Virus record (IMG/VR): IMGVR_UViG_3300016665_000370 | Coordinates: 1-64,000 of that record | DNA: 64,000 nt | Source of the DNA: a virus | Strand: one strand, 5' to 3' | Part shown: positions 11,384-63,700 of the stretch, piece by piece | How the letters are laid out: each line of letters opens with the position of its first letter | Numbering within the stretch: the stretch's first letter is position 1 | Program-made: the position numbers and the translations under genes | The notes under the pieces: generated by a model | The model's input: only the letters and a program-made list of their open reading frames with translations | The model's database searches: none | Told to the model about the DNA's origin: nothing

Positions 11384-11414
11384 GTTCTACGATATAACAT
11401 CTTCGGAGTTTTTT

Positions 11415-38557: not shown

Positions 38558-38767
38558 TTAGTCTTTAGGTTTTGGTTTATCTAACAGATTATATCCAATA
38601 CCTTCGACTTCAGAAACAAGAAGTTCAAACACATGAGCTTCATTTGCAGACATACTTCTTGTTAGTTCTAATACATGCTTTCCACATTTTGTTAATACAC
38701 CAGATTTAGTAACTCCGCTTTTCATAAATACATTTACATCTTTATTTAATAGACTATCAAAATTCAT
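38558..38767 (-). CDS. Small protein, possible Sm/Hfq-like fold
   Basis: LLNKDVNVFMKSGVTKSGVL...VLEL resembles an Sm1 motif. Confidence 0.45.
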   Translation of the reverse strand: MNFDSLLNKDVNVFMKSGVTKSGVLTKCGKHVLELTRSMSANEAHVFELLVSEVEGIGYNLLDKPKPKD

Positions 38768-41755: not shown

Positions 41756-41756
41756 G

Positions 41757-45284: not shown

Positions 45285-45297
45285 GGCATTATTTATA

Positions 45298-48200
45298 TCA
45301 TATAAATAAATTTTCTGTCAAAGCTTCATCAATTAATGTTGGCTCATTATTAAATCCAGATTTCTTTAAAAATACACTTATTTGTACTTTTGTTGATAAT
45401 GTTGGTAATGTTGGATCTTTTAATATATTTGTAAAATTTAATCTCAATAAACCCGTTAGTTGATCTATATATACTCCCATTTTAGGATCAACAATGATTC
45501 CACTATATCCATCTGTATATCCATCTAATAATGGACTAAATGATTGCATTGATATATCAAATCTAACTTGATTATTTAATAGCGCATTTGATTGTACATA
45601 TGTACAATCTCCAAACTTCATTGCTTTAAATCCTGATATTGTTTTTCCATTAGCATATTCATAAACAAAGTTACTAAATAAATTAATTGTCTTTTCTGTA
45701 CCAAAGAAATTATCTGGGACTTCTAATACAATTGTTCCAACTTCAAAGTCAACTTTAAAATGATTTTTGTTTTTATCTAATATTTGATTACCAACAATTA
45801 AGTTTCCTGGAACATAATAATTTACTACTCCAGGATCAAAAGATAAACCTAATGGATAGGTTAATACTTCTGGACAATTATCTGTACATGATACATCAGA
45901 ATATCCTGATGTCTCTATAATTGAGTTTGGTACATATACTAGTTTTGAATTTACTGCAATAAAATAATCTTTCCAATGCAATCTTGGATCTGCAAAACTT
46001 GATACAGGATTTGCTGAAAAATCTCTATCTTGTAAAGAAACATTATCTTCAAATATATTTACCAAACTATGTAACAATGATCTATCTGTATAATAATCAT
46101 CATGTCTATCTACAAAATTTTCTAATCTTATTCTAAGAACTGAAAATGTAGTTCCTATTTTAGAATAAGGATTTGTTGTTGGTGCTGGATAAGATAAAGA
46201 AGGAAAACTTGTTATTTCATTTCTTGTTAAATAAGATTCTATTAAATATCCATCATCTGCATCTATTAAAAAGTCTCCATTAACATTGCATCTCAATAAA
46301 GACAATAATACATTTTCATCTATGTATTTCTTTCTTACTGTAACTGCTGAACCATTTAATCCAACAATTTTAAATTGACCATTGTTTTCTGGATTTAATG
46401 GATCTGAAATTACTATACTATAATCTTCTACAGAAAAGTATAATGAAAAGTCTATATTTGCAGATTCAAACAAATAATCTGTATTATTAATTGGAGTTAA
46501 TTCTCCATCTGTATCGCTACTAATTATATTATTTACTAAAGAGCTATCAATAACTTCAAAGCTCAATCCAGTTGTTGCTGTAGATGGATTGGTTAAGAAC
46601 TTCCATCCATTTGTACATGTTGTTGTAATTGTATCTGTAACAATATAAGAGTCTAAAGGAGGGCTGATATTTAAATTATAATCTAAATATTTAGATAACT
46701 CAGCATAATCAGATTCATCTACAATACAATCTCCATTCCAGTCACCATAAGTCATGGTTAGTTTCTGAGCATCTCCAACTCTATAGAATGTATTTGGATT
46801 TGCCAAATCTGGAGTAAACTTAGATCCTATTAATTCTCCATTAACAAATGCTGATAGCAATTCAGATAAATATCCATCTTTTCTTGGATCAGTATTATCT
46901 TCTAATAATGGAACAATAATTTCATTATTTATAATTGTAAAATACTTTAAACTTAAATTATAATTTGTAGTTGATTCAAACTTTTTGTTTTTATCAGAAA
47001 TAACTCCTAATTTTAAACTTGTTGCAAAAGAATCTAAGTTTGAAGTTTCAACTGAAGATAATAAACTAATTTGTGGAACTTTCTTTTGTTTAGAAGCAGA
47101 TGTTGTTCCTGTTCTTTTATCTTCTACAGAATCAGATAATTCTGTAATTGATTGAACTATTGCTGTATAAGTATCATTTCCTTTAAAAGATAAATTATCT
47201 AAACAATAATCTATTGTTGTTCCATTATTATCTTTTATTTTTTCTATTTCTATTCCAAATCCATTTTCATAAATTTTTGCAGAACTGATTTTTGAAGAAT
47301 CGGAATAAATTTCAAACCATAGATCTTCTGATTGAATATCTGTCCAGTAATTTCCATTAAATACAGTTAATCTTGAATTCTCTACTAGATCCGATCCTGT
47401 ATAAAGTTTAATGTCACATTTAGTTGCTGAACCAGATCTTTTTAAAGTAAAAGCATAATATTTATTTGCTTCTACTTTATTTGTAGCTAACCCTGTATTA
47501 GAGAATACAAAGTCAATTGGTTGTGGAGTATTTGATAATTCAAATCCTTTATCTAATAAAGAATTGTAATTTAAAGTTATTTGAGCTAATGGAGTTGGAA
47601 TTGGATCAAATTCTATTTCTAAATTAGGAGCTAAATCTGTTGGGCAAGATATTGTAGATTGTAATGGATAAACAGTAAATACTAAATCTCCTTCCCAAGC
47701 TAAATCATTTTCAAATCCAGGATCATTATTTTCTACGGATAATAATAATCTTATTTTTTGAATATTATTTGTTGGAGATTTAAATTTCTGACCAATCTCT
47801 GTAGTAATATCATTCTTAGCCAATTCTCTTACATTTTCTTCTGTAGTATATATTTGTAATGAATCAATATCATAATTTGGCAAAGCTGCTTGAATTAATT
47901 CATTTAGTGTTCCTGATGTTATTGGAAAAAAATCTCTCCAAAATAAATTTGGTTGAATGTTTTGTTTTAAAACCAAACAATCTCTTGATAAAGAAGCATT
48001 TAAAGCTTCATATATTCTTACTTTACCACCAAGATTTAAAGATAATACTAGAGCAGAAATATCATTAATTAAAATAGATAATATATTTTTATAATGTAAT
48101 TTGGTAAATTGAGATTCATTTTTATGAAATGTAAATGTTTCATAAACTAAATCATTATTAAAGTTTAATCCAAATACGACTATTTTTACAGTTCTTAGTC

Positions 48201-48489
48201 CAAATACTTCTGAGTTTGATAATTCTATTTCTAATTGATTTCCATAATCAGAATCAGATGGTTGAGTTTGTACATTTAGCGGAGTTCCATCTAAATTGCC
48301 AACTACTAATTCAGAATCAAATAATACTTTTTTTTCTAAGTTATCTGGTAAAATACCTTGACCTACATGATTGTAGGTCAAGCCAGATAATACTGTATTT
48401 GTATAATTTTGTTCTATAGATAAATCATCATTATCTACTTGCTGACCATTTAACCAAATATTTTGTTTAGTTGTTATATCTTTTCGCAT
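45298..48489 (-). CDS. Large putative virion structural protein with dockerin/EF-hand-like motifs
   Basis: 1063 aa, acidic and beta-rich, in the baseplate operon; GDWNGDCIVDESD and NVNGDFLIDADD. Confidence 0.65.
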   Translation of the reverse strand: MRKDITTKQNIWLNGQQVDNDDLSIEQNYTNTVLSGLTYNHVGQGILPDNLEKKVLFDSELVVGNLDGTPLNVQTQPSDSDYGNQLEIELSNSEVFGLRTVKIVVFGLNFNNDLVYETFTFHKNESQFTKLHYKNILSILINDISALVLSLNLGGKVRIYEALNASLSRDCLVLKQNIQPNLFWRDFFPITSGTLNELIQAALPNYDIDSLQIYTTEENVRELAKNDITTEIGQKFKSPTNNIQKIRLLLSVENNDPGFENDLAWEGDLVFTVYPLQSTISCPTDLAPNLEIEFDPIPTPLAQITLNYNSLLDKGFELSNTPQPIDFVFSNTGLATNKVEANKYYAFTLKRSGSATKCDIKLYTGSDLVENSRLTVFNGNYWTDIQSEDLWFEIYSDSSKISSAKIYENGFGIEIEKIKDNNGTTIDYCLDNLSFKGNDTYTAIVQSITELSDSVEDKRTGTTSASKQKKVPQISLLSSVETSNLDSFATSLKLGVISDKNKKFESTTNYNLSLKYFTIINNEIIVPLLEDNTDPRKDGYLSELLSAFVNGELIGSKFTPDLANPNTFYRVGDAQKLTMTYGDWNGDCIVDESDYAELSKYLDYNLNISPPLDSYIVTDTITTTCTNGWKFLTNPSTATTGLSFEVIDSSLVNNIISSDTDGELTPINNTDYLFESANIDFSLYFSVEDYSIVISDPLNPENNGQFKIVGLNGSAVTVRKKYIDENVLLSLLRCNVNGDFLIDADDGYLIESYLTRNEITSFPSLSYPAPTTNPYSKIGTTFSVLRIRLENFVDRHDDYYTDRSLLHSLVNIFEDNVSLQDRDFSANPVSSFADPRLHWKDYFIAVNSKLVYVPNSIIETSGYSDVSCTDNCPEVLTYPLGLSFDPGVVNYYVPGNLIVGNQILDKNKNHFKVDFEVGTIVLEVPDNFFGTEKTINLFSNFVYEYANGKTISGFKAMKFGDCTYVQSNALLNNQVRFDISMQSFSPLLDGYTDGYSGIIVDPKMGVYIDQLTGLLRLNFTNILKDPTLPTLSTKVQISVFLKKSGFNNEPTLIDEALTENLFI

Positions 48490-48497
48490 ATTAGCTC

Positions 48498-51400
48498 TCA
48501 GAAGTAATTTAAGAATATCCTTGAATTAGCTGGCTTGAGTATCTTTAATAATCTTTCCAGTATTTTCTTGCTTTGAGGATTATCTTTTAATATATTAAAA
48601 GAGTCGAATATATCTAACGTAAACTCATATATTCCTGACTTTTTATTTACTATACTTGCAAAATCTTCAAAAAGCTCATAACTTATATTTGAATCCAACA
48701 AATATGTTGTATACAAATCTTTTACTACTGGTAAAGAACTATTGCCTAGATAATTTATATCTATAGATTCATTTAGATATTTAAATGGCTCTCTATATTT
48801 ATTTGATATTCTTAGATTATCTATTAAAACATTTCCATAATTTTTATTTGTATAATCACTTCCTATTGTAAAATAATTTAATGTATCTTTAAATACAATT
48901 GGCTCAAGAATTGAATAACCATCATATCCATCTCCTACATATGTAGATCCATAAATATATGGTTGATCTCTAAATACATCATTTTCATATGACAAAGAAT
49001 TATACTTATATCCATCAATAAATAACAATAAGTTTTCATTTATTGAATTAAACTTATAGCTAGCTTTAATTCTATGCCATGAATTTCTTTCCCATACAAT
49101 TGGTGCTCTTATAGAATAATTCTTATCAGATGCTTTTATCTCAAAGTTTAATAAATTATCTTCATCTTTGTAGATAGAAATTCTATCTCCATTAGATCCT
49201 TTTGGAATATAATTTACAACTACTTTTGTATTGTTTGATGGGAGTTCTTTTCCTAAAATAATTACTTGAGAATTTGTTTTTATAATTTCTTTTGGCTTAT
49301 AAGATACAACAACACTTACATTATCATTAGGAAGAGATTTGTTTAAATAAATTGTTTTTCCATCAGACGCAATAACTCCATCATCAAAATAATCAATTAC
49401 AGAATAATTGTTTGCTTTTACATAAAGTATTTGACTTGCTTCTTGAGAAATAACTACTTTATTTGAAGTACTAGATGTAACAATTTCATTTATAGAATCA
49501 TTTCTATAATAATCTATTCTTCCACCTGAAAAGTAATTAATATCTGAATTTAATGTTTTTACAGATAATATTTCTTTTGCCTTGGAAGATAACTCTAAAG
49601 TCTTTTTAGATAATGAAGTTACTTCTTCTGATATTGCTGAACTTGAATCAAAATAATATCTTTTATTATAATCATATACAGTATCAAATATAGGACTTAC
49701 CCAAAATTCTATTGTTCCTTCTTTTTTAGAATCTAAATATCCTAAATTCTCTACTTGTATATTTCTATTATTTAAATATACAGCATTTTCAAATTCTTCA
49801 TTTAAACTTGAATTTGCATAAATTATATTATTATCTTTTATTGCTGCATAATACAAAGATTCATTTTCAAATGGAAATGAATTAAATGTAGATTTAAAAA
49901 TTAAATTCTTTGTATTTTTGGTTCCTTTGATTAAATTAAAGTTTTTTGTAACAGAATCAATATCAGAAGTAGATTCCCCTGCTCTTACATCCGAAAGAAC
50001 AGTATTATATATACACAATTCATTTATAATTGAATTACAATGGTTTTCTGAATTAATATCAGAACCTATGAATAATTCTTTTGGTAATTCAAAATTAATA
50101 GAAATATAAGATGGATATAAAAATTCATAATATCCTTTTCTTAATAAATATTGCTGACCTGGATAGTCCAAAGGTTCAAAATTAAAGAAACCATTCTGAG
50201 TTCCAGATGGAACCTCAGCATGTCTCACAACTTTGTAATATCCATCCGTAAAATCATCTATAGGCAAAGTATAGCCTGTTGAGTATGGATCAATCTCTAG
50301 AATGTTATAGTTTACTCCTGTAATTCTATAGAATCCAGCCACTTCAACAGGCTCTTCAATTAACAAAGAATCTCCAACATTTGAAATTGAAAATTTATTT
50401 TCTAAATCAATTACTGTATTGCTTGAATTCTTTTCTAATTTAGTACCTTGATTAACAACATAACTATATTTTAATACTGGAGTAAAATAACTTATCTCAG
50501 GTTCAAATATTGATTCTGATTCTATGCACTTAACAGAACAAAATGGTTTTGATGTATTTATTGCATATCCATCAATTGTTATTTGATTTACTGAAAAGAA
50601 TAAATTTGTTGTTTCTAATTCTCCATAATCTGTAAAAGATAGTATTTCTGATGTATTTATGTAATTAACATTTCCAAATACTTCTATATTTACTGGATAT
50701 GTAAAATCAATGTTTGATCCATTTAGTATTACTTTTACTTTTCTACCAGATTGTGAATTGATTGGATTATCTGTATCTACAGATCCATCAAACTTAGTTC
50801 CAAATAAACCTGATAATGTAGTATTTGTTGAATTAAAAGAATAACTATCTAATAGTATTTTCTTTATTATTACATCTTCTGTAGATATTGGTTTTGGTAA
50901 TTGTGTTTTTATTATATTGGATAAGTTATCTGACCATTGATAGTATTTTCCTTTTACTATTTCATGATTTAATCCAAGACTTTCGGCAAATAATAATTCG
51001 TTTGAATTTAAACCATTTTTAACTATAATTTGATATCTATCAAATTCATAATCAGATACTTCTGCTCTTGGACTTCTTAGTTCAATTTCATTTGTTGAGT
51101 AAATGAAAAATTCATAATTTGTACCAGTTACAGGTAAAGTACTATCTAATGTTAATGTATTTCCAGATATTGAAACTATTGTATAGTAATTATCAAATTG
51201 ACTATCGTTAATTCTTATTAAATCACCAACAGAAGCAATTGTGTCAAAATCAGATAATAAAGAAGTAACTACATCTGTAGAATTTGTAGATAAATCTGAT
51301 TCTGTATAATAATGAGAAAGCTTATAGAAATAATTATTGTTATTTAAGTAATATCTTCCATAACCATCAAATATAGTTTTATTTACGCTAAATTCTAAAT

Positions 51401-54400
51401 CGGTTAATGATACTGGCATTGCAGTATCTAAAGTAAGATCTTGTCCTGAAATGTTTGTTATTTCATAACCAGCAGAATCAAACAAATCATTGAATATATA
51501 AATTCTATCTCCTATAGATACATTATAGGCAGCAAAGTTAATTAAAGAAGAAACTATATTTGATCCAGAAGTTGTTTCAAGATCTATAGATCCAACAATA
51601 TCTTTTCCAGAAACTCCTATAAATGATTCTTTGGATATTGTTCTAAATTCTTGATGAATGTAATTTCTTATATTATCTGAGTACTTAGATATATTAGAAA
51701 CTTCTTGCCCATCTATAAATAGATGAAGTTCATCTTTCTTGGACTTGGAGCCTACTCTCCATGCAAGGTATATTTGATGAGCTTCTCCCGAAATCCAATC
51801 AGAAACATCTTTTGATATTGAATATCTTTTACCTTTAGTATCTATTATTTCAAAAACAAGATAACCAGACTTATCCTTATATAAGGAAAATCTACTTTTA
51901 TCTTTTTTCATATCAATAAAGTATTTTTTACTATCAGCAATAAATCCATACAATTCATTTTTTGCTGTAGAACTACTTGTAATTGATATTTTACTATTTG
52001 TAGATGTTGTGCTTGCTGGATATCCATCTATTATTCTAAAATCATAAAAATCAGAATTTAATTTTACTTTAAAAGTATTTGTTGCTGTAGAATATCCATC
52101 TATAATTCTTAGATACCATCTTTCAAATAAATTAGATTCATCATTATCCAAGTAAAAATAAAGTCCATCTTTATTAAAGTTAGGAGATCCTTTAATTACA
52201 TTAGATAATGTAAATATATTTGATTCTGGATGTAATTCTGTTGATCCAATAAATATCTTATCTGAAGATATAGCTAAATTATCTTCTAATACTTCTACTT
52301 GAATTTCTTTTTGATTATCAATTCCATTCCATTGAGGAATTGCCCAAAATCCTAAAGATCCTTCTTCTATATTTAAATTATTAAATGTATCAAACTTAAT
52401 TGATCCATTATCAATTAAAACTCCATTACCATGTTTAGCTGGTAATATTTCAAAAGTACCATTTGTTTCTATAGATTTTGGCTTTAATAGACTTTGACCT
52501 AATGACCAAAAATTAAATGCAGATTCCTTTACATCTGGTTCTGTATGTACAATTTGTTTTACTATATTTTTTATAGCTGGAATCGTTGGACCTAATATAA
52601 AAGAACTTAAAGCTGCATAAATTGCATCTCTATATCTTTCTCTATTAAAAGATGGATCTATATTAGAGATTTCATCTACATTAATTAATGTAGAGAAGTT
52701 TTTAGATAAAGCATCTCTTAATGCTCCAACTTTATAGCTAACATAATATTGAGAATTTGTTGGAATTGTAAGGCTTTCTCTAAAGTCTAATGAATTAGAT
52801 CCAAACTCATAATTTACTAATATTTCATCTGCAAGATAATTGTAATCTATATATAAATCTCCTCTAGAATAATCAACTACAACTCTAGATAAATTATTTA
52901 TTGTAAATAATAAATCTATTTTTACTGTTTCTATTGTAGTTGTATCTAAGAATATTTTATTTGAGTTTTCTTCTATTGTATAAGAAAGAACATCTATATC
53001 TGTATTTAGCAAAACTGATGTTGCTGTAAATTCATAAGTAATATTTGAAGAGTTGTAATATATTTCTTTTGGAATCTCAACAAAATATCCATCAATAGAA
53101 TATTCGCTAACTAAAAATAATGTTTTGGAAAATGAATTTGTTTCTATTGATTTATTTGAATAGTTAGAATAATTTGCAAAATTTATTGGATTTGTTGAAT
53201 TTATGAAATCTTCATATTCATACAATCCATATATACTTGATACTTCATTCTTTACTTTATTAATAAAATTAGAATTTTCTACATATCCTACTTTTGAATT
53301 AATTAATAAATAAGGATTGCTATTTATAGAATCTTCTTTTGAATTAGGTAAATTATTTATTTCAATAGAATCTTCATTAATAGAAACTACATCTACTTTA
53401 ATTAATTCTGTTGAAGGTTGAATATAATTCAAAGAATTAACATACAATGGATTTTTATTTATTGTAGTTAAATTTGAATATTTGTAATTAGCTTCTCCAA
53501 AGTTTTCTATTGTAAGAGAATTTACTCCTACATACAATAAAGAATTTTCATAGTCAACAACATATTCTCCAACATTCTGAATTGAATCTATGCTATTATA
53601 ATTTCTTTCTGTAACAAAGATATTATTATCTAAAGCAAGACTTGTATTTTTAAAGCTTGCTATTCTATCATTTGTTGATGAAATTATATATTTGTTTAAT
53701 AATTCAAACTTAGCAACAATAATTGTATTTGCATTTGTTGAATAATTTGTAGGAATTAGTTTTTCTGTTGCTAATTTGAAATCTACAATTTCTTGAGTAT
53801 TTAATATTCTTGGAGGTGTATTGTATCTAAAATATACTTTGTTTCCATCAAATCTAGATAACTGATAAACTTCACCAGAAGTTTCATTATATATTCTAAA
53901 TACGTTTGTTATTGGATAGTTTTTTGTATTTAAAACATTTAAAGCTGTTAATCTATTATTTATTCTTTCATTTAAAGATTCTTCATGTAGATTTGCTTTA
54001 TAATCTTCTCCATTAACAAATACAAATTCAAAATTATAGTTTACATAAATTGTTTTATCAATTGCTTTTCCTTTTGGAAGAATAGCTAGATCATATGTAT
54101 TTGAATCATATACATAATCTATTTCAGACTGGAAGGTCTGTTTATATGTGTAAGAGACTACTGGTGGTTCTGGACCCGAACCTATATTTGATGAGCTTGC
54201 TCCATAAACATAAATATTTCCATTCTCATAATTAATAGAATATTGTCCGGGAGCAAATGGCAACTCTTCATATCTAAATTTTATTTCATATAAAAATGCT
54301 GGATGAGTTGTATTTGAATTTAAATTAATAAATGTTAATCCATTTGATTCTGGAGTATTATTATCTCCATCAATTATATTTGCATTCTTTAAAAAGAAAT

Positions 54401-55463
54401 TTGTAGATATTGGAGGTAATACTTCTCTTACTACATTTTTCCTAGAAAAAATATCTACATTAGAAATTATCTTTCCGATATTTTTATAATAATATTCTAC
54501 ATCAACTTTTACAATTTGTGCAATATCAAAGTTTTCATCTTTTAAGATTTCTTCATTTAATTTTATTTGATTTGATTCTAATGTAAAATAAGTTGATGCA
54601 AAATCAGAATCATATTTTGAATCTAATATTTGATATCCATATTTTTCTATATTGTAATTATAAATTGGATTTATTGTTGATAATGTAAATACAATTGATT
54701 TTACTTTTATAATATTTTGTTTTGATAAGTTTAAATTAAAATTCAATATATTAAAGAAACCAGAAGAATCTATAGAATTAGGAGTAAGTATTTCTGTTTT
54801 ATATGTTTCTTGTAATGAAACTAATTTGTATTTTGATGAATCAAAAATATAAGTATCTGTTGAAAATGTATTTGTTGGTCTTGGAGCAACTCTTATAATT
54901 TCATAAGCACTACCTTCATTTAATTTATCAAAAGGTCCAGAACCTCTTGTTTTTAATTCATCTGTAACTGTATAAGAAATATAATTTTCATTTTTTACAT
55001 TCTTAATAGCATCTAATGCTACATCTAAATTCTTAGAAATAGAATTTATAATTGTAGATGTAACCGTATTATCTTCTAAACTATAAACTCCATCTTCTAA
55101 TGATTGATTTATTAATTGCTTAAATATATTTTCTTTTTCTATTGGTCCAAGAATATCAAATCTATTACCTACATTATCCTGTAATAAAATAGCTTTGTTA
55201 TCTTTTGAAATAAATGGATATGAAATTGTCTTTAAGGCTTTTACATAATAAGTAATAAATGGAGTTAATGGTTGGCATTTTACAAATAAAAGATTATCCT
55301 TAATTTTTACATTAAGAACTTCAGAATCAGGAATAGAAGAATTGCTTGATACTATATTAATATTTGCAGTCTTTATTCCTAATGTTAAGTTATGAGAAAA
55401 TTCTAATATTAAGTCTTGACTTGATTTTACTTCAACATTGATTAGCCTTAAATTTTCCATCAT
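48498..55463 (-). CDS. Giant baseplate/tail-associated protein with LamG/ConA-like domains
   Basis: 2321 aa directly after the baseplate J gene; RERYRDAI...GPT (wedge-like), EGSLGFW/EGTIEFW, LFIDG, IDNLRIS, C-terminal KPANSR. Confidence 0.7.
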   Translation of the reverse strand: MMENLRLINVEVKSSQDLILEFSHNLTLGIKTANINIVSSNSSIPDSEVLNVKIKDNLLFVKCQPLTPFITYYVKALKTISYPFISKDNKAILLQDNVGNRFDILGPIEKENIFKQLINQSLEDGVYSLEDNTVTSTIINSISKNLDVALDAIKNVKNENYISYTVTDELKTRGSGPFDKLNEGSAYEIIRVAPRPTNTFSTDTYIFDSSKYKLVSLQETYKTEILTPNSIDSSGFFNILNFNLNLSKQNIIKVKSIVFTLSTINPIYNYNIEKYGYQILDSKYDSDFASTYFTLESNQIKLNEEILKDENFDIAQIVKVDVEYYYKNIGKIISNVDIFSRKNVVREVLPPISTNFFLKNANIIDGDNNTPESNGLTFINLNSNTTHPAFLYEIKFRYEELPFAPGQYSINYENGNIYVYGASSSNIGSGPEPPVVSYTYKQTFQSEIDYVYDSNTYDLAILPKGKAIDKTIYVNYNFEFVFVNGEDYKANLHEESLNERINNRLTALNVLNTKNYPITNVFRIYNETSGEVYQLSRFDGNKVYFRYNTPPRILNTQEIVDFKLATEKLIPTNYSTNANTIIVAKFELLNKYIISSTNDRIASFKNTSLALDNNIFVTERNYNSIDSIQNVGEYVVDYENSLLYVGVNSLTIENFGEANYKYSNLTTINKNPLYVNSLNYIQPSTELIKVDVVSINEDSIEINNLPNSKEDSINSNPYLLINSKVGYVENSNFINKVKNEVSSIYGLYEYEDFINSTNPINFANYSNYSNKSIETNSFSKTLFLVSEYSIDGYFVEIPKEIYYNSSNITYEFTATSVLLNTDIDVLSYTIEENSNKIFLDTTTIETVKIDLLFTINNLSRVVVDYSRGDLYIDYNYLADEILVNYEFGSNSLDFRESLTIPTNSQYYVSYKVGALRDALSKNFSTLINVDEISNIDPSFNRERYRDAIYAALSSFILGPTIPAIKNIVKQIVHTEPDVKESAFNFWSLGQSLLKPKSIETNGTFEILPAKHGNGVLIDNGSIKFDTFNNLNIEEGSLGFWAIPQWNGIDNQKEIQVEVLEDNLAISSDKIFIGSTELHPESNIFTLSNVIKGSPNFNKDGLYFYLDNDESNLFERWYLRIIDGYSTATNTFKVKLNSDFYDFRIIDGYPASTTSTNSKISITSSSTAKNELYGFIADSKKYFIDMKKDKSRFSLYKDKSGYLVFEIIDTKGKRYSISKDVSDWISGEAHQIYLAWRVGSKSKKDELHLFIDGQEVSNISKYSDNIRNYIHQEFRTISKESFIGVSGKDIVGSIDLETTSGSNIVSSLINFAAYNVSIGDRIYIFNDLFDSAGYEITNISGQDLTLDTAMPVSLTDLEFSVNKTIFDGYGRYYLNNNNYFYKLSHYYTESDLSTNSTDVVTSLLSDFDTIASVGDLIRINDSQFDNYYTIVSISGNTLTLDSTLPVTGTNYEFFIYSTNEIELRSPRAEVSDYEFDRYQIIVKNGLNSNELLFAESLGLNHEIVKGKYYQWSDNLSNIIKTQLPKPISTEDVIIKKILLDSYSFNSTNTTLSGLFGTKFDGSVDTDNPINSQSGRKVKVILNGSNIDFTYPVNIEVFGNVNYINTSEILSFTDYGELETTNLFFSVNQITIDGYAINTSKPFCSVKCIESESIFEPEISYFTPVLKYSYVVNQGTKLEKNSSNTVIDLENKFSISNVGDSLLIEEPVEVAGFYRITGVNYNILEIDPYSTGYTLPIDDFTDGYYKVVRHAEVPSGTQNGFFNFEPLDYPGQQYLLRKGYYEFLYPSYISINFELPKELFIGSDINSENHCNSIINELCIYNTVLSDVRAGESTSDIDSVTKNFNLIKGTKNTKNLIFKSTFNSFPFENESLYYAAIKDNNIIYANSSLNEEFENAVYLNNRNIQVENLGYLDSKKEGTIEFWVSPIFDTVYDYNKRYYFDSSSAISEEVTSLSKKTLELSSKAKEILSVKTLNSDINYFSGGRIDYYRNDSINEIVTSSTSNKVVISQEASQILYVKANNYSVIDYFDDGVIASDGKTIYLNKSLPNDNVSVVVSYKPKEIIKTNSQVIILGKELPSNNTKVVVNYIPKGSNGDRISIYKDEDNLLNFEIKASDKNYSIRAPIVWERNSWHRIKASYKFNSINENLLLFIDGYKYNSLSYENDVFRDQPYIYGSTYVGDGYDGYSILEPIVFKDTLNYFTIGSDYTNKNYGNVLIDNLRISNKYREPFKYLNESIDINYLGNSSLPVVKDLYTTYLLDSNISYELFEDFASIVNKKSGIYEFTLDIFDSFNILKDNPQSKKILERLLKILKPANSRIFLNYF

Positions 55464-58400
55464 CTAAATTCTGTGTTAATAGTTAGTTCATCTAACTCAA
55501 AATATTCATTATTTTGAGCAACTAACTTAACAACAGAACCACTAACTCCAGATTTATTGAAGTAAATTAATCTTGCTCTATCTACTCCTTCAACAGATTC
55601 AGCAGCTAATTGTAAATCTACATCTTCTAATGTTCTTCCTAATTCTAATGTATTTACTAAGTTTGTTATTGCATTACTAACGTTTTGCTTTATTGTAGAT
55701 TCTGTTAATCCATTTGTTAATGTAACTAGTATTAATAGTTCAATAGATACTTGTAACTTAGATGCTTCTTTTACTAACACATCTGCATTAATTGGTCTTG
55801 TTGATTCTATTCTAAATGTAACATCTCCAATAAGTTTATTATAATTGTATCTTAATGTAATTCTTTCATTTTGTTTTGGTCCTATATAATCATAAAATAC
55901 TTTGTATCTAGATGAAGAATTTGGTTGATTAAACAAACTAATACTTAATCTAGTAGATTGTGAACTTCTAAATCCAGAACTAGATATTTTGTTTATATAT
56001 ACAAAATTTTTATTTGTATATAATGTTCCATTTCTTGTAAAATTAATTGATTCAGAATCATTTTCTACAACAAAATAAAATGTTCCTAATAATTTATCTC
56101 CTATTGTAGTAGATTCATTTAATTGAAGATCTAATCTACTTAATGATTCATCATATACAAAATTATCAAAATACTTATTATCTAGCAAACCAGTATTAAA
56201 CAGATTGTAAGAATAATCTTTTGATAATACAATATCTCCATCTGTAGTTACCTTCTCTAATGAAACTACTTTTACTAATTTTATAGAAGAGCTTATTGTA
56301 GAACTAGATGTTAATCCAAGATATTTTCTTATAGCTTCTGCAAAGTTTACTTTTCCATTAGAATAAATACTAGAGAAAACTATATCTTTTGCTTTGTACA
56401 ATGTTGTTCCGCTTATTGTAATAGATCCTGGATTTACAACATTATCTGATAATGTACATGCTAGCTTACTTGATGAGTTTTTAATTAAATTATAAGAATA
56501 TAAAACAAATAACACATAATCATTTACAGTATAAGATCCAGATAATATAATTTTGTTATTATCTTTATCTATTGTATAAGAAGTAAGTTCTTTATTATCT
56601 TTTATTCTATTTAAAAATAAATTATTTGAGTTTATATTTGATACATCTTTTTTTATTTTAATAAAATTTCCAAATATAGAATATGCAGTAATATCATAAA
56701 TTCCTTTATTTAATCCAGATATTGATAATTTATAATTACCTACACTTGGAATGTCTATTACTGTAAAAGATGCTCCAAATAATGCATAACTAGAATAATC
56801 TGTTAGTGCGCCATCACTTCCAGAAAACAATACATATCCATCATCTTCTCTAAATACACTATATTCTATGGAAGTATCATTAACAAAGCTATTTAGTGGT
56901 AAATAATAATTTGTTCCATCAAATTTGATTTGATCAAATCTATATAATAATAAATCATTTGAATAATTTATATTTTGAAATCTTGATAATTCTTTTGGAT
57001 AATATACAATAATAACATTATCTCCAATGGCTGGAGTATTATATCCAGTAAGAACAGCTTGATATTTTTGACTTACAATATCTAATGTACCTTCATTATC
57101 AGAATTCCAAAATTCTACATTATCAGTGATTCTAAATATACTAACAATATCAACTGAATTTAATGTTGTAACATCTAATTCTGCATACAAATCTCCATTT
57201 GTATTTTGTTGAATTGTTGCATTTTGAGTTCTGATATTATTTGTAATGGATTGGCTTTGTCCGCCAGCAAACGAATTTAAAAATCCATTTGCTAATTTAC
57301 TTGTTGGTAAACTTGTAATATTTCCATTAAAACTAGAAGATGCACTTGCTATATAAGCTACATCAAGATTTATCTTTGGTTCTAGCGTGTCTATATTGTT
57401 GAATGGAATTGTAATTGTAAAATTAGATGCAGTTCCTGAAATATTATCAACTGTAAATACATTCTGTTCATTTGTTTTTACAGTTACATAATTGTTTTCT
57501 GCTGCTGTTGTATCTGTTGGTAAAATAATTGTTACATTATAATAAACATCTCCATTAAATAATGTATTTGTATATTCAAACAAACCATCATTTTTATTTG
57601 ATTTAAATAATTCTGTATTTAAATATCTTAGACTTACAGAATAAATTGATTCTGGTAAAGTATCTACATTAGATAGAATTACTTGTAATCTATCTACATA
57701 TCTACCAGAAGTTATTTTAGTAACAATACCACTGTATTGTCTATATTTATTACAATAGAGTATTGTATTGATTGGAAGACTAGAAGAACCAACAAAGAAT
57801 GAAGATGTATTATCTAATTCAAAAGATATTGTTTCTTTTGATAAAGAGCTGTATCCCCAATCAATACTATCATCAACAATTCTTTTATTATTTGTATTTT
57901 CTAATCCATCAAAATCTAAATGAGAGTCATAAGAAACTATCCAGCTATAATCTACTTGCAAAACATCTGTTGCTGTAGGTAATGTATTTCCAGATATTTT
58001 TATTCTTCCATTATTATTTATAGATCCATAACCATCTACATTTTGATTTGTAATTACATATCTTTCTCCAGTATTTGTATTAAATACTCTTGTAACATTT
58101 GTTACTGGATAATGAAGTAATTGTATAATAGATCTGTCAGATGTTACTTTTGAATTTTCATTTGTTATTAATATAGATTGTTCTATTTTAGATATTCTTG
58201 ATACATCAGTAAATGTTAATTGATCTTGTCCACTTACTTGATTCTTTATTCTATCTTCTGAGAAATCTTTAATTGTATTAGATACCCATTTTAGTTTATC
58301 AAATCCCCAAGGACTTCCTGAATAATATCCTGTATCTTTTAGCAATTCATAGTTGCCAGATATTCTTCCATATTGATCAACAGATTTTTCTTTAAAGTTA

Positions 58401-59449
58401 GATCCAGATAATGATCCTGTAATTTGTACAATATTTTCTACAGGTTGAGTTGGTAAAACTCCGTTTCTAATATTATCTACTCTTTTCTTTGAAACTGTTT
58501 TATTTTCATCTGCTAAGATTTGTCCAATTACATAATTATTTAATGAATTTGTTGGATCATTTTCATTTGATTTATCCAAATAAATAAATGAATCAGTTGC
58601 TTCTATTAAATTAGATCCAAGAATAATAATATCTACTTTACCTCCATCACCTTCTTTAACAATAGATAAATTACCTTCAGAGTCTTTATTTACTACAGTA
58701 CCATCTCTTGTCATTAAAGGATCATTTGGTTCTACTACATAAGTATCAACTACTCCAGAAACACTAGATGCAGAATTAAAATATCCTAAATTAGTTCCTA
58801 CACTTGATCCGCTAAATGTAGATAAAACTCTATCTCTAAATGCAGCATCATTTTCAGAATCTAATCCTCCATTAAATGAATTTACATTGATAACATTACT
58901 AGCTCCAACTATATTTGTTCTTGCAAGACTATATTTAGCAATGTTACCAGATGTTCCTGTTGTATTTGCACTTACAGAAACTTCTACTGCAAACTCATCT
59001 GTTATTCTAAGTGCATCTAAATCAGCTCTATATTTAGTTGCTATTCCTCTATAAAAATTAGAATTTGAATTACTTACAACACTACTTGTATTAATTGAAA
59101 ATGGAATTCCATTTGTAGAGAAAACTAAATCTCCTCGATTAATTGCAACATTTCCTTCTATAGACTGAAATGTAATAATAGCAATTCCTGAAGCAGATGT
59201 TGCAGTTTGTCTAGATAATCCAAAGTTTCTTGCTAGCTTATCTAAATCAGATCCAATAACAAGTCTTAATGATTGTTTTGAAGATATATTTGCAAGCTCA
59301 TCATATAATAAAGATAATTGACTTGCTAATGGACCAATAAATATATCTCTTGTTACAGTTCCTGGCTTTGTATCTAATTCAGGTTTTACCAATCTGTAAA
59401 AATCTATTAGATTAGAAATTATTTCGTTGGTATTTCTTATGTTAACCAT
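55460..59449 (-). CDS. Baseplate J/gp6-like wedge protein with a large insertion
   Basis: DTKPGTVTRD, LDKLARNFGL.R..AT.ASG, G.SGN, GG.D.E.DAAFRDR, GGKVDI, C-terminal V.GVD. Confidence 0.85.
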   Translation of the reverse strand: MVNIRNTNEIISNLIDFYRLVKPELDTKPGTVTRDIFIGPLASQLSLLYDELANISSKQSLRLVIGSDLDKLARNFGLSRQTATSASGIAIITFQSIEGNVAINRGDLVFSTNGIPFSINTSSVVSNSNSNFYRGIATKYRADLDALRITDEFAVEVSVSANTTGTSGNIAKYSLARTNIVGASNVINVNSFNGGLDSENDAAFRDRVLSTFSGSSVGTNLGYFNSASSVSGVVDTYVVEPNDPLMTRDGTVVNKDSEGNLSIVKEGDGGKVDIIILGSNLIEATDSFIYLDKSNENDPTNSLNNYVIGQILADENKTVSKKRVDNIRNGVLPTQPVENIVQITGSLSGSNFKEKSVDQYGRISGNYELLKDTGYYSGSPWGFDKLKWVSNTIKDFSEDRIKNQVSGQDQLTFTDVSRISKIEQSILITNENSKVTSDRSIIQLLHYPVTNVTRVFNTNTGERYVITNQNVDGYGSINNNGRIKISGNTLPTATDVLQVDYSWIVSYDSHLDFDGLENTNNKRIVDDSIDWGYSSLSKETISFELDNTSSFFVGSSSLPINTILYCNKYRQYSGIVTKITSGRYVDRLQVILSNVDTLPESIYSVSLRYLNTELFKSNKNDGLFEYTNTLFNGDVYYNVTIILPTDTTAAENNYVTVKTNEQNVFTVDNISGTASNFTITIPFNNIDTLEPKINLDVAYIASASSSFNGNITSLPTSKLANGFLNSFAGGQSQSITNNIRTQNATIQQNTNGDLYAELDVTTLNSVDIVSIFRITDNVEFWNSDNEGTLDIVSQKYQAVLTGYNTPAIGDNVIIVYYPKELSRFQNINYSNDLLLYRFDQIKFDGTNYYLPLNSFVNDTSIEYSVFREDDGYVLFSGSDGALTDYSSYALFGASFTVIDIPSVGNYKLSISGLNKGIYDITAYSIFGNFIKIKKDVSNINSNNLFLNRIKDNKELTSYTIDKDNNKIILSGSYTVNDYVLFVLYSYNLIKNSSSKLACTLSDNVVNPGSITISGTTLYKAKDIVFSSIYSNGKVNFAEAIRKYLGLTSSSTISSSIKLVKVVSLEKVTTDGDIVLSKDYSYNLFNTGLLDNKYFDNFVYDESLSRLDLQLNESTTIGDKLLGTFYFVVENDSESINFTRNGTLYTNKNFVYINKISSSGFRSSQSTRLSISLFNQPNSSSRYKVFYDYIGPKQNERITLRYNYNKLIGDVTFRIESTRPINADVLVKEASKLQVSIELLILVTLTNGLTESTIKQNVSNAITNLVNTLELGRTLEDVDLQLAAESVEGVDRARLIYFNKSGVSGSVVKLVAQNNEYFELDELTINTEFR

Positions 59450-59461
59450 ATTTTAATATGA

Positions 59462-59893
59462 TTATATTGTGCTTAATCTAAATGCTGTTGTAATTGGTTT
59501 AAATCCTTTTGTTATTACTGTAATATAAATTTCATAAACTCTTGGATCAAATTGACTTCTTACTACATCAACAGATTTTATACTAGCAATTTGTTCATCA
59601 GCAGACATTTTTTGATTTGATTTAATTTGATAAATCTGTAAATCTTTTAGATTTTCAAGAGCTTTTGTAATTTGATTCTTAGAAATTGAATTTAATAAAG
59701 TTTCAGATTCTGGAGATCCAATAATACTTTTAGATAAAAATGATCCATACCATGGATTTAATTTATCAAAACCAACAGGAGTTAAACATATCTTTAATAC
59801 ATCTTGAATTAATTTCTCAGAATCAGTAATAGTTTTAATATCTCCATTTTCTATTACCAAATCTCCATTTTTTATTTTTAAATCAAAAGACAT
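59462..59893 (-). CDS. Baseplate wedge gp25/GPW-like protein
   Basis: MSFDLKI.NGDL, KLIQD..KI.LT..G...PWYGS, DPR; immediately upstream of baseplate J. Confidence 0.75.
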   Translation of the reverse strand: MSFDLKIKNGDLVIENGDIKTITDSEKLIQDVLKICLTPVGFDKLNPWYGSFLSKSIIGSPESETLLNSISKNQITKALENLKDLQIYQIKSNQKMSADEQIASIKSVDVVRSQFDPRVYEIYITVITKGFKPITTAFRLSTI

Positions 59894-59894
59894 A

Positions 59895-61508
59895 TTATAT
59901 CCTTATTCCAAACTGTTTTCTTTCTGTATATATAGTTTGCATTATATTATATACTTGAAAAACATTTTTCTGAATTTCTGCCAAAGACTCTTCTAATGTT
60001 GGTCTTGGTTCTCCAGATAATTTAAGTATTTTTATACATCTATCATAAGCATCATCATCTAATAATCCTAATAAGTATCTTCTTTCAACAAGATATAATC
60101 CTGCTAATATAGCTACAATATCGCACAATCCTAATCCACTAAATTCTCCCATAATAAGTTCTATATTTTTAAAAGCTTCGGATGCTTTTGTATCAAAAGA
60201 TAACTTTGTTCTTATTAATGATTGATATGTTGATCTAGATATGTCTCCAAATGCTTTTGTAATAATATCAATTCCTGGTGCAATAAAATCTGTAATAGAT
60301 TTTGATATTCCTTCATTTTGAACTTTTGATGTTTGTGGTGTAATTTTATTTAATGTATCTTTTATTCTAAATCTTTGGATTTCATTATCTAATTCTGAAT
60401 TGTATTTATTTTCAAATAATCCAATGTCATAACTCCTTATACCAGATTCAATTCCTTTTGTTCCGCAAATTGGTAAATACCATGTAATACCATATACAAG
60501 ATCAATATCGTTTTGAGCTGATATTAATTCATCTACCATAGAACTAATTAAATTTAAAAACTTTAAAAACATTTGTCTTTCTACAATCCCATAAGATGTA
60601 GGATCTTGTATTTTGCTAATAATTTCATCATCTTTAATTTCATCATTTGCAGAAACAAAGTCTATAATATCCTGTGCATATGCTCCAACTTCTCCTTGCC
60701 TATTGGCTGCTAAATATCTAGATTCTATTACTTTTTGTAATAAAGGTATTTTAGCAGTTATTGTTGGATTTATTTGTAATTGAGATTGTTTCCATGTAAA
60801 AGGAACTGCTGGCTTTTTTATTGCGGCTAAATCTAATCTTGGATCAACAATTAATGGAAAAATATAATGATATCTTTTTGCCGTCAATTTTATATTGTTT
60901 GTAGAATATTCTAACAATGATCTATTTAATGGATCTGCTAGTTTTACCAAATAAGATTGATTATCAATATCAAAATCAAATATTTCTTGGTATTTATCTA
61001 CATGATCATTAAAGTTTCTTATATTGTATGAACTTAATATAAAAGATGATGTAATTATATTTTGATATCCAAACCATTCTTGTACTTTTGAATTATAATA
61101 AGATTCTCTTTTTACAGAAAAATCATAATATCCTGATCTTGGTGAATTTATTATTTCTAATTTTTTTGATATTTTTCTAGTTTTAGTAGTAAATATATTA
61201 TCAAATAAATATTTTACACCATCATGTCCTGGATTATAAAAATCATTACCAGTACCAACTACAGGAAATCCAACTAATCTAAGAAATGCATGTGCTCTGC
61301 TTTCTTGATAAGAATCGCTAACCTGTAGTTTATTTGTAACTCCACCAAAATCAGAAACTTTTAATAAATTTAGTTTTTTTAAATTATCAGGAGAAGAAAT
61401 ATTTACATACCCTCTTATTTCATCAATTTCTGAAACAACAGAGTTGTAAAACTCATTGATATCAATTTTGAAATTCTGATTATTCTTATAATTAGACTGA
61501 TTTGTCAT
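59895..61508 (-). CDS. Hypothetical protein in the baseplate operon
   Basis: 537-aa ORF tightly coupled to the structural genes. Confidence 0.7.
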   Translation of the reverse strand: MTNQSNYKNNQNFKIDINEFYNSVVSEIDEIRGYVNISSPDNLKKLNLLKVSDFGGVTNKLQVSDSYQESRAHAFLRLVGFPVVGTGNDFYNPGHDGVKYLFDNIFTTKTRKISKKLEIINSPRSGYYDFSVKRESYYNSKVQEWFGYQNIITSSFILSSYNIRNFNDHVDKYQEIFDFDIDNQSYLVKLADPLNRSLLEYSTNNIKLTAKRYHYIFPLIVDPRLDLAAIKKPAVPFTWKQSQLQINPTITAKIPLLQKVIESRYLAANRQGEVGAYAQDIIDFVSANDEIKDDEIISKIQDPTSYGIVERQMFLKFLNLISSMVDELISAQNDIDLVYGITWYLPICGTKGIESGIRSYDIGLFENKYNSELDNEIQRFRIKDTLNKITPQTSKVQNEGISKSITDFIAPGIDIITKAFGDISRSTYQSLIRTKLSFDTKASEAFKNIELIMGEFSGLGLCDIVAILAGLYLVERRYLLGLLDDDAYDRCIKILKLSGEPRPTLEESLAEIQKNVFQVYNIMQTIYTERKQFGIRI

Positions 61509-61510
61509 AA

Positions 61511-63700
61511 TTAAATATCAGAAATATCTCTTCTTGGCTGTCCATCAGAATCAATGCCTTCGCCAATTCCTGTTCCTGCAACAGAAGCTACGAATCTATA
61601 TTCTAATTTCTTTATCTCTGAAGTTGCATCTTGATCTAGATCTTCTGGTAATGTAACTAATGTTAAAGATTGGTTTGAATATGATAAATCTATTAAACCT
61701 ATTCCTCCAGTAGAAGAAGATATTTCTCCTATAAAGAATTGTGTTCCATCATATACAAATTTACCTATCTCTCCTAAAGTTAAATTGGCTGTTAACTTAT
61801 CTGCAACTTTTTGAGCTACACTTGCAGTTAGGTTTTGAGTTATTGGTTGATTATTCCCATCTCTTAAATCTACAATTACTTTTATTTTCTGTGTTGTAAA
61901 TTGTACAGATGGATCTAATCTAAATGTACTCTTAGATGCATCTATTCCAATATCAAATAACTCTTCCAAAGATTGATTACATTTGTTTTCTAAATCAGTT
62001 AAACATGTTGTAGTTGTTGCTTGAAATGTAGCTAATGTAGTTTCATTAAGATCTGACCTTAATGTATCTAATGCTGTTTGCAAACATTGTTGAGTAAAAT
62101 CTAAATCTGGAAATCTATCTGATCCAAGCAATTCTGTTAATAAATCTAATCTTAAATTAAAGTTTCCAGCAATAACAGTATTAACAAAATCTACATCATT
62201 TCTTAAATCTGGATTACATGCAGATGCAACTAAATCTTTTGAGAATAATACTTCAAAGTTTGGCTTTAATGTATATTCCATATTGTCATATCTATAGCCA
62301 TCTGTACTTTCTAGTACTGGATTTTGCTCAAACTCTGTAGGGAAAAATATGAAATTCTCTAACGTTGCGGGAGTAGTTGTTTGAGTATAACCATCCGTAT
62401 CAAACCCAAACAATTGTGTAGTGCCATCTGCTTCAAATCCTAAGCCGCCTGCCAAAGACAAAACTCCATTTGCAGCTCCGGTTGTTGAATTATTCCATAA
62501 TATTAAGTTTGTTGTAGGTGGATTTAATACAATACAATCTTTAAAGATTATAAATCTTGGAACTCCATAATCAGGTCCAATTCTTCCATAATTTTGAGGA
62601 TTATAGAATAGTTTTAAATCAACTGTATAAGCAGCTTGTTTGGGATTTGTGCTAGCAGTATATACAACATCTGTTGGGAAAAATACTGGCTTTGGATTTA
62701 TAAAGCTAGGGATATCATATGCATCAACTATATTGATAAATCTTTCATTTACTTCTTGAGCATTATCATATAATTGAAATGATTGTTTTCTTATTTCATA
62801 AGATAGATTGTTACTGCCTCCTGGTATATTTGGGAAAGGAAGTATTACATTTGATTCTGCAATAACTGAATTATAATATTGTAATGATCCGGTTTGTCTT
62901 GATGTTGTTTTTAATACATAATCTGGACAAACATCTGAGTTACAACATTCATCAAGATATTGTTGTTCTGTTAATGTAGCTGGATCTGATTTTGTACATG
63001 GAGGAATTCTAAACTTAATATTTAAAATATCTTTTATTGTTTTAAACAAAATTGCAAATGCAGATAATAATACAAATAAGTTTTGAAATATACAAAGCAA
63101 TGCTGCAATCTTTTTAGAAATTGCAATAATAGATTCATTGTCTGCCTTTTGTATTGCTTTATTTAATGCTCTTATGTTTCTTAAAATAACATCAATAAGT
63201 TTTTGAATTTGATTAATTATATAAGCAATAAGTTCAAGCAATAATAATAACAAAGATATAATCATAACAATTAAAGCAAATATAGGAAACATAGCTAAAA
63301 AGTCTGGTAAACAAACTCTAAATAATTTTCTTATTGCTCTTAATAGTTTTACTGGATTCTTTAATGCACAAATTATTTCTATAATACAAACAATTAAGTT
63401 TAATATAGGTAAAAAGAATTTATATAACATTAAGAATGGGAAAAACTTATCCAATAACTTCATGATACCATCAAAGATATCTTTTGCAAAGTTTGGATTT
63501 AATGCTGGTTGTAAAATACCAGAAGGTAATACTAATTTTAATCTGTTAAAGATACTTAATAAATCTTCAGGAAACCCATTTGGAAATGGAAATTTATTTA
63601 AAGGTAAACTTATAGAGAATGGTTGACCAAATCCTGGTATAAAATTAATAGGTGGTGGATCTGGAAGATTTATATCAATATCATTAACATCACAAGGCAT
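61511..63700 (-). CDS. Putative virion protein with long hydrophobic helices
   Basis: 729 aa; Pro-rich N-terminus, hydrophobic/amphipathic region at about aa 72-228, DGY motifs. Confidence 0.7.
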   Translation of the reverse strand: MPCDVNDIDINLPDPPPINFIPGFGQPFSISLPLNKFPFPNGFPEDLLSIFNRLKLVLPSGILQPALNPNFAKDIFDGIMKLLDKFFPFLMLYKFFLPILNLIVCIIEIICALKNPVKLLRAIRKLFRVCLPDFLAMFPIFALIVMIISLLLLLLELIAYIINQIQKLIDVILRNIRALNKAIQKADNESIIAISKKIAALLCIFQNLFVLLSAFAILFKTIKDILNIKFRIPPCTKSDPATLTEQQYLDECCNSDVCPDYVLKTTSRQTGSLQYYNSVIAESNVILPFPNIPGGSNNLSYEIRKQSFQLYDNAQEVNERFINIVDAYDIPSFINPKPVFFPTDVVYTASTNPKQAAYTVDLKLFYNPQNYGRIGPDYGVPRFIIFKDCIVLNPPTTNLILWNNSTTGAANGVLSLAGGLGFEADGTTQLFGFDTDGYTQTTTPATLENFIFFPTEFEQNPVLESTDGYRYDNMEYTLKPNFEVLFSKDLVASACNPDLRNDVDFVNTVIAGNFNLRLDLLTELLGSDRFPDLDFTQQCLQTALDTLRSDLNETTLATFQATTTTCLTDLENKCNQSLEELFDIGIDASKSTFRLDPSVQFTTQKIKVIVDLRDGNNQPITQNLTASVAQKVADKLTANLTLGEIGKFVYDGTQFFIGEISSSTGGIGLIDLSYSNQSLTLVTLPEDLDQDATSEIKKLEYRFVASVAGTGIGEGIDSDGQPRRDISDI

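Follow-up and report, generated by a model that had tools for sequence, protein, structure and literature searches.

The tripeptide Asp-Gly-Tyr (DGY) is strongly over-represented in predicted tail proteins encoded by positions 1–64,000 of the virus record IMGVR_UViG_3300016665_000370 (64,000 nt, hereafter the window), part of a single 93,977-bp contig of 26.6% GC. We show here that DGY is a positively selected, position-free short linear motif on variable surface loops of outward-facing tail proteins, displayed by the outer baseplate giants, the extension of the baseplate-J protein, the fibres, the part of the sheath that precedes its conserved C-terminal core, and the large pre-sheath proteins. 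Neither a repeated domain nor a DNA signal explains the pattern. Because the tripeptide is exact, ordered and free in position, we infer that it is probably imposed by a trans-acting reader, for which we propose a putative chemistry below.

DGY enrichment in the window and across the clade

The expected number of DGY was calculated from each protein's own composition and compared with the observed number using Poisson P values, and DGY was ranked among all 8000 tripeptides. A recount on the translated open reading frames (ORFs) gave 22 DGY in the window, exactly the tally of an initial annotation of this DNA, with the same breakdown by protein: nine in a 2321-aa protein, four in a 1063-aa protein, two each in 1329-aa, 729-aa, 707-aa and 116-aa proteins, and one in a 396-aa protein. 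The tandem forms DGYDGY, DGYTDGY and DGYSGIDGY listed there were likewise present. The same annotation had put the chance expectation at 1–2, which was right in being far below the observed number but slightly too low, as composition gives 2.98. With this correction, DGY stood at the top of the 8000 tripeptides (22 vs. 2.98, p = 1.4e-12), and the next-ranked tripeptide reached p = 1e-5. Over the whole contig we counted 35 DGY where 4.38 were expected (p = 4e-20), well above the 9.3 given by a first-order (dipeptide) expectation, the carriers outside the window being a 523-aa protein (five copies), a 1938-aa protein (six), a 260-aa protein (one) and the tail sheath (one). DGY was also the top tripeptide (24 vs. 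4.1) in the closest record, IMGVR_UViG_3300016469_000571, which is collinear with the window contig at approximately 70% protein identity.

The 94-kb contig and the 94-kb record of this 70%-identical relative look like fragments of a giant phage, because CheckV puts the relative's record at approximately 22% complete. Collinear relatives with a completeness rating of 91–100% measure 361–481 kb, some contigs with homologues of the 2321-aa protein measure 350–511 kb, and reads matching the window came from freshwater metagenomes of at least two studies; the clade is one of freshwater phages of roughly 350–510 kb. We examined genome-wide specificity in a relative whose genome is complete (447,763 bp; 693 ORFs). 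Its tail block (46 ORFs) contains 45 DGY vs. 3.8 expected (p = 2e-32), and no ORF longer than 330 aa outside this block carries the motif, the large head and replication proteins having none. Searches for the capsid genes of this relative using the Pfam families Gp23 and Phage_capsid gave no match. The initial annotation had found no DGY in enzyme and replication proteins; this is true of the present contig, but in the complete relative the motif occurs at the chance rate there and is not depleted.

Within the clade, the homologues of the 2321-aa protein (at least 120 full-length sequences at ~40% identity, of which 120 were aligned) carry a mean of 6.9 DGY vs. 0.5 expected, and 150 representatives of the 1063-aa family contain 307 vs. 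21, a 14.5-fold enrichment that again makes DGY the top tripeptide. Across 79 related IMG/VR loci, we counted 1029 DGY vs. 92 expected, and the fact that enrichment is present from 25 to 48% GC speaks against a compositional or GC artefact. Five deeper relatives, with 25–29% identity to the search query, contain 8–18 DGY vs. 1.0–1.7 expected, and all five also have the glycosyltransferase (GT) gene cassette described below. When we looked for more-distant relatives lacking that cassette, the P0155 query alone returned nothing, and an alignment search returned the same clade plus the five deeper members, with both features. The motif is roughly of the same age as the clade.

The idea that myovirus tails in general are rich in the motif was rejected, since DGY is not among the top tripeptides of T4 or Bacillus phage G. 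T4 contains 11 DGY vs. 4.8 expected, and the tail module of Bacillus phage G, which is the nearest by baseplate-J similarity in the phage collection, contains 2 vs. 2.46. The sole clade member seen without a DGY excess is IMGVR_UViG_3300001847_000873 (L060), for which a 30-kb baseplate region gave three pattern matches vs. three for the control; its contig ends inside the 1063-aa homologue, and no close relatives of it were found in IMG/VR or the metagenome collection. A literature search for a "DGY motif" together with phage found no paper. In bacterial genomes, (DGYx)3 arrays gave at least 120 matches, which were low-complexity D/G/Y-rich stretches or non-coding repeats. The scan for these arrays also turned up several metagenome-assembled genomes of predatory bacteria (Bdellovibrionota/Oligoflexia; L174, L202, L210, L221, and L240) that have ORFs of 350–800 aa with long D/G/Y-rich stretches such as DGYDDGYSDGY...DGYNDGYPDGY.

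Carrier proteins, exactness and turnover of the motif

The protein with the most copies, a 2321-aa outer baseplate protein (48498..55463, minus strand), has DGY at residues 791, 1122, 1146, 1366, 1631, 1740, 2150, 2178, and 2181, and is a chain of beta-sandwich/CBM-like domains with LamG-like (ConA-like) signatures, including Pfam Laminin_G_3 at residues 2081–2182. A 1063-aa baseplate protein with dockerin-like calcium-loop segments (45298..48489, minus strand) carries four, at residues 538, 746, 989, and 993. The 1329-aa baseplate wedge protein (55460..59449, minus strand) combines a gp6/Baseplate_J-like N-terminal third (phrog_6; PF04865 at residues 2–281) with a long extension, and both of its DGY (residues 472 and 870) lie outside the conserved gp6-like core, with none in the gp6-like domain. 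Two further copies each are found in a 729-aa baseplate-module protein (61511..63700, minus strand; residues 436 and 467), which has homologues in 64 of the 79 related loci, and in a 707-aa fibre with DUF5907 repeats (19360..21483, plus strand), where residues 73 and 127 fall in N-terminal ..LxW......WxP repeats. Beyond the window, the 918-aa tail sheath (L002:3091-5847) has one DGY, at residue 417, upstream of its conserved C-terminal sheath domains. Two inner baseplate parts of the window, a gp25-like sheath initiator of 143 aa (59462–59893, minus strand) and a 537-aa baseplate protein (within 59462..61508, minus strand), contain no DGY, and in this genome and the two relatives examined none was found in the tape measure or in the 1625-, 641-, and 537-aa baseplate-region proteins. 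The initial annotation had described a short linear motif common to unrelated structural proteins of the virion. BLAST detects no paralogy between the carriers, but they belong to the outer tail, the baseplate and the fibres rather than to the virion at large, and proteins such as the tape measure have no copy.

Two observations concern these proteins for other reasons. The second most enriched tripeptide in the window is WEP, owing to the ..vLtW......W.P repeats at the N-terminus of the fibre (19360–21483, plus strand). In addition, residues 606–749 of the 1063-aa protein, residues 838–964 of the 1329-aa protein and residues 412–592 of the sheath share a weakly similar domain of ~130 residues (BLAST E = 2e-6 and 1e-3); this domain, common to the sheath, the baseplate-J extension and the 1063-aa protein, may be a tail-exterior decoration module.

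The placement of DGY within these proteins was assessed on AF2 models. Residues 1040–1800 of the 2321-aa protein were modeled as an all-beta domain chain (pLDDT 83.7; 47% strand overall) in which DGY is located at strand ends and in loops, and the structural neighbors of this model were weak matches to multi-domain beta-rich proteins, including CBM-containing enzymes and phage tail proteins. For the 78 alignment columns of the modeled region in which DGY occurs, 34 were in insertions, 22 in loops, 16 at a strand/loop edge (with Asp typically the last strand residue), five in a strand and one in a helix. Flanks of the sporadic sites were less conserved (0.46 vs. 0.59) and richer in gaps (0.27 vs. 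0.13; both p about 1e-10). The exposed loops that the initial annotation had proposed to look for find support, with 56 of the 78 columns in insertions or loops and with variable flanks. Across the 2321-aa family, DGY is absent from residues 1–300 and 1800–2100 and almost absent up to residue 700. The 1063-aa protein gave a model with pLDDT 88 whose best fold match was a phi812 baseplate chain (E = 1e-7); residues 989 and 993 both belong to a loop of 20 residues with pLDDT down to 53, site 538 is a helix N-cap, and site 746 is in a dockerin-like calcium loop/helix.

The enrichment belongs to the exact, ordered tripeptide at the protein level. In the contig, the sense-strand pattern GAYGGNTAY occurs 35 times in frame 0, never in frames 1 and 2, and twice antisense, and the Asp, Gly, and Tyr codons inside DGY follow background use in this genome and its relative. 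A DNA-level cause, whether the footprint of a mobile element or a site for restriction, uptake or recombination, was therefore rejected. Tyr follows DG at 5.0 times the expected frequency and Phe at 0.8 times; GY is preceded by Asp at 5.7 times expectation, by Glu at 0.2, and by Asn at 0.6; and between D and Y, Gly alone is enriched. In the 2321-aa family, the observed-to-expected ratio (O/E) is 13.6 for DGY, 0.64 for NGY, 0.23 for EGY, and 1.3 for DGF, with the permutations GDY, YGD, DYG, GYD, and YDG at 0.6–1.8 and with DSY (0.29) and DNY (0.26) under-represented. The sequence context is acidic and Lys-poor, and Lys (0.1) and Pro (0.3) are excluded at positions +1/+2 directly after the motif; beyond this exclusion no extended flanking consensus was found, the flanks being nearly without information.

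Several structural explanations were tried. A type I' two-residue beta-hairpin turn (Asn/Asp-Gly) fails in that NGY and DGF are not enriched and that in the models DGY mostly opens loops of at least four residues. Calcium loops of the DxDxDG, dockerin, or EF-hand-like kind account for a minority (residue 746 of the 1063-aa protein; DVNGDGYID in homologues), and overall position −2 is depleted of Asp (0.3) and position −4 has an excess of just 1.4-fold. As a source, internal repeats and paralogous domains were dismissed: when the carriers were compared all against all by relaxed BLAST, no match was more than weak, and DGY was aligned in three short ones. A LamG/ConA-like "phi-phi-D-G" core fits site 2150 of the 2321-aa protein and perhaps sites 1061 and 1122, at most three of ~7 sites per protein, and at site 2150 the DGY-poor lineages keep D-G and replace the Tyr by F, E, or R.

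Individual sites are gained and lost freely. Three sites of the 2321-aa family are near-invariant (reference residues 1122, 2150, and 2178) and a few others are moderately conserved, but DGY also occurs in another 80 columns of the alignment, each less than 50% occupied, as against 6–29 such columns for control tripeptides of equal or higher expected frequency, and it still reaches 6.9 times expectation after the conserved sites are removed. Insertions particular to a lineage hold many of these additional sites, which build arrays of the (DGYx)n type, such as DGYVDGYFDGY and DGYDRIDGYYDGYTDGYADGY. Of the 24 sites that can be compared between this genome and the 70%-identical relative, 17 are common to both; others were gained or lost, as in DADDGY vs. 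DGYDGY and SDG-ALTDY vs. TDGYILDDGY. Three lineages have DGY-poor baseplate giants in which DAT, DN-, DGR, or DGF stands at even the near-invariant positions, and therefore DGY is not needed for the fold. Two of these genomes have many DGY in other tail proteins; in profiling for a co-lost gene, the apparently DGY-poor records G007 and G008 were seen to retain the motif there.

Glycosyltransferase genes and competing readings of the motif

Immediately after the 1063-aa gene lies a cassette of minus-strand genes with overlapping reading frames. It opens with a GT4-type (GT-B) glycosyltransferase (44157..45284; phrog_2170, PF00534), which starts 13 nt downstream of the 1063-aa stop codon, and continues with a GT2 enzyme (43483–44160), an Fpg/Nei-like protein (42707–43519), a 328-aa protein with look-alikes in viruses only (41757–42743), a second GT2 enzyme (40928–41785), and a dTDP-glucose-4,6-dehydratase-like enzyme (40059–40931). 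A GT4 homologue is present in 63 of the 79 loci (E ≤ 1e-5), and in nearly all loci that reach far enough the 1063-aa homologue is followed by it at once or almost at once; the synteny of the cassette is kept down to 26–29% identity, and deeper relatives have still larger cassettes. In Bacillus phage G, which shows no DGY excess, the 41 kb covered contain no annotated GT. The motif is tied to an enzyme solely by this conserved synteny of the cassette, which makes the GT4 protein a candidate reader of DGY.

Judging from these sequence features, we propose, with somewhat less than even confidence, that DGY is a tyrosine glycosylation sequon read by the neighboring transferases, one of the possibilities raised in the initial annotation. 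A cytoplasmic glycosyltransferase encoded by the phage would read Asp-Gly-Tyr in surface-exposed loops of tail proteins, whether folded or still assembling, and attach a sugar to the hydroxyl of the tyrosine. For this step the GT4 enzyme, whose gene almost always comes after the two DGY-richest genes, would be the first candidate; extension of the glycan would fall to the two GT2 enzymes and supply of the nucleotide sugar to the 4,6-dehydratase-like enzyme, and the result would be a glycan coat on the tail periphery. A little more doubtful is the broader claim that DGY is the sequon of an undescribed phage-encoded tyrosine O-glycosylation system coating the outer tails of the clade, which would be the first case of sequon-directed tyrosine glycosylation on a virus's own structural proteins. 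The proposal agrees with the exactness expected of an enzyme sequon (DGY O/E of 8–14), with the exclusion of Lys and Pro after the motif, as in enzyme sequons, and with position-independent, repeatedly gained sites in accessible segments; phage-encoded GT genes also adjoin virion structural genes, as in virion glycosylation of the mycobacteriophage type.

Several points weigh against it. A sequon might be avoided off target, yet the 647 non-tail ORFs of the complete relative contain 13 DGY vs. 14.1 expected, which is the chance rate with no avoidance. A terminator-like hairpin (45268..45288, minus strand; a 9-bp stem followed by a T run, matched by consensus only), which overlaps the GT4 start codon, stands between the structural genes and GT4 and could uncouple or dampen transcription from the former into the cassette. 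The co-occurrence test that the initial annotation had proposed cannot discriminate: alongside the motif, nearly all loci that extend far enough have a GT gene, usually the GT4 homologue, just after the 1063-aa homologue, and these include L031 and L058, whose baseplate giants have lost most DGY; no genome was found with one feature and clearly lacking the other. The cassette transferases are too divergent for an acceptor to be assigned, and the Fpg/Nei-like gene hints at a DNA-directed role, so that the cassette could serve another acceptor; a ThyA homologue passes the thymidylate-synthase cut-off and gives no support for DNA hydroxymethylation as a hint of DNA glycosylation by the cassette. 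To our knowledge, no tyrosine O-glycosylation sequon of the DGY kind has been described in bacteria or phages.

The main rival is an adhesion motif without any covalent change, in which DGY would be an RGD-like ligand for a host receptor or a minimal sugar-binding unit. In the sugar-binding version, the Tyr ring would stack on a sugar, Asp would hydrogen-bond its hydroxyls, and Gly would give flexibility; as an adhesion device, dozens of copies multiplied by the tail symmetry would provide polyvalent, reversible attachment to the host envelope or capsule. Confinement of the motif to outer tail proteins built of CBM, LamG, and beta-sandwich domains suits this idea, as do its position in loops and insertions, the tandem arrays, which would raise avidity, and the loss from baseplate giants in some lineages, as after a receptor switch; the lack of avoidance elsewhere in the proteome also fits a motif that matters only when displayed. 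However, sugar-binding loops normally accept Trp/Phe and Asn/Glu, and only the ordered D-G-Y is enriched. One exact motif over hundreds of phages at 25–48% GC, with probably different hosts, is hard to reconcile with a single shared receptor, and the conserved adjoining GT cassette would go unexplained. On balance we consider adhesion unlikely, though deserving of serious attention. RGD-type adhesion tripeptides are found in loops of unrelated proteins, including viral capsid proteins, and DGY, too, is exact and ordered, sits on flexible loops at the surface of unrelated proteins, and would serve one partner; RGD differs in addressing integrin receptors and in usually occurring once per protein, whereas DGY occurs 2–16 times per protein and in tandem arrays.

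Three further explanations appear improbable to us, each clearly more so than adhesion. The arguments for a trans-acting reader apply equally to a different mark, such as Tyr phosphorylation, sulfation, nucleotidylation, or oxidative cross-linking, or Asp-Gly isoaspartate chemistry, installed by an enzyme encoded elsewhere in the ~450-kb genome or by the host. The acidic, Lys-poor context resembles tyrosine-sulfation preferences, and a 319-aa ORF (8328–9287, plus strand) gave a weak kinase-like match (phrog_15752, E = 2e-5). That match, however, covers ~30 residues and lacks NCBIfam support, and no credible tyrosine kinase, sulfotransferase, or oxidase was identified and no synteny link to the tail genes was seen, which leaves such a mark with a low probability. 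We would be similarly surprised if DGY proved to be a docking or assembly tag, its loops bound by another phage protein, for example a chaperone, a fibre or a decoration protein, that fits onto many different tail proteins. The motif is exact, exposed and common to unrelated tail proteins, and the tail block contains several small uncharacterized ORFs, some with DGY; yet site positions and copy number vary freely among close relatives and tandem arrays occur, unlike a stoichiometric assembly interface, and no candidate binder was identified.

It is just as improbable that there is no reader at all and that DGY is a lineage-specific strand-end or loop-start habit spread by slippage duplication and inheritance. 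Asp is indeed often the last residue of a strand with G-Y opening the loop, one near-invariant site is an ordinary LamG "phi-phi-D-G" core, tandem copies can come from slippage, and DGT, DGV, and DGI are ~2-fold enriched, as expected for turns. Turn propensity nevertheless cannot give the pattern, because it predicts enrichment of NGY and DGF as well and both are flat. The tail proteins of T4 and Bacillus phage G also lack the effect, the sites can be replaced by unrelated residues, the codons bear no sign of copy-paste, and the enrichment holds over 25–48% GC and down to 26% identity.

Returning to the glycosylation sequon, a precedent is available in mycobacteriophages, whose own glycosyltransferases glycosylate the virions (Freeman et al., 2023, Cell Host Microbe, as cited in PMC12582341, ref. 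80). The clade resembles that system in having phage-encoded GT genes beside structural genes, a presumed target on the exposed virion surface and cytoplasmic modification. The mycobacteriophage glycans are reportedly carried by capsid and tail-tube subunits, with no exact tripeptide sequon reported. Glycans were demonstrated by experiment in the mycobacteriophages, whereas here the case is made from a sequence motif, and modification would concern outer baseplate, fibre, and sheath-associated proteins of an uncultured myovirus-type phage. The general O-glycosylation sequon of Bacteroidota, given in PMC8550257 as (D)(S/T)(A/I/L/V/M/T), is similarly a three-residue, Asp-first signal that marks many unrelated proteins for one system. 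It has, however, a Ser/Thr acceptor at position 2 and exported targets, whereas in DGY position 2 is Gly, the sole hydroxyl is that of Tyr at position 3, and assembly would be cytoplasmic. We rejected DGY as a sequon of the Bacteroidota type, given the Gly at position 2 and the under-representation of DSY.

Tyrosine O-glycosylation is carried out by the bacterial toxin/effector glycosyltransferases Afp18, PaTox, and YeGT (PMC4518317, PMC11152714), which illustrate that bacterial and phage-tail-associated GTs can use the tyrosine hydroxyl as an acceptor. These enzymes are GT-A toxin domains that modify one tyrosine of eukaryotic Rho GTPases and not structural proteins of their producer, and no sequence relation of the cassette to the Afp18, PaTox, and YeGT glycosyltransferases was found.

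If DGY has a reader, it would amount to a simple, portable tag, three residues long, for the outward face of a virus tail, and it would add a new surface chemistry to a widespread group of environmental giant phages. Should that reader be a tyrosine glycosyltransferase, it would represent a new type of protein glycosylation, would explain why sugar-transferase genes are kept inside a tail gene block and could provide a compact tool for site-specific glycosylation of proteins at a three-residue site. If the adhesion motif were true instead, DGY would be a bacterial-virus counterpart of RGD.

Further features of the window

Two small carriers complete the set in the window. A 116-aa ORF (1616..1966, minus strand) contains DGYSGIDGY, with DGY at residues 43 and 49, and its homologue in the 70%-identical relative has one DGY. 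A 396-aa ORF (5251..6441, minus strand) has a single DGY at residue 294, where the relative reads NGF, and this copy is probably a chance occurrence. An M23-family peptidoglycan endopeptidase (15383–15895, minus strand) offers an example of chance DGY, since the site, which reads NGY here and DGY in the relative's homologue, lies inside the conserved H..G....Y.HL active-site motif.

The glycosyltransferase cassette ends with a TubZ/PhuZ-type tubulin gene (38767–40062, minus strand), which occupies the same place in several relatives and fits a giant phage. Inteins are found in three genes of the window (35614–38283, minus strand; 28135–31410, minus strand; 11382–13301, plus strand): a UvsW-type helicase and a ribonucleotide reductase have one intein each with a LAGLIDADG domain, and an IMP-dehydrogenase/GMP-reductase-like gene has the N- and C-terminal splicing regions of an intein.

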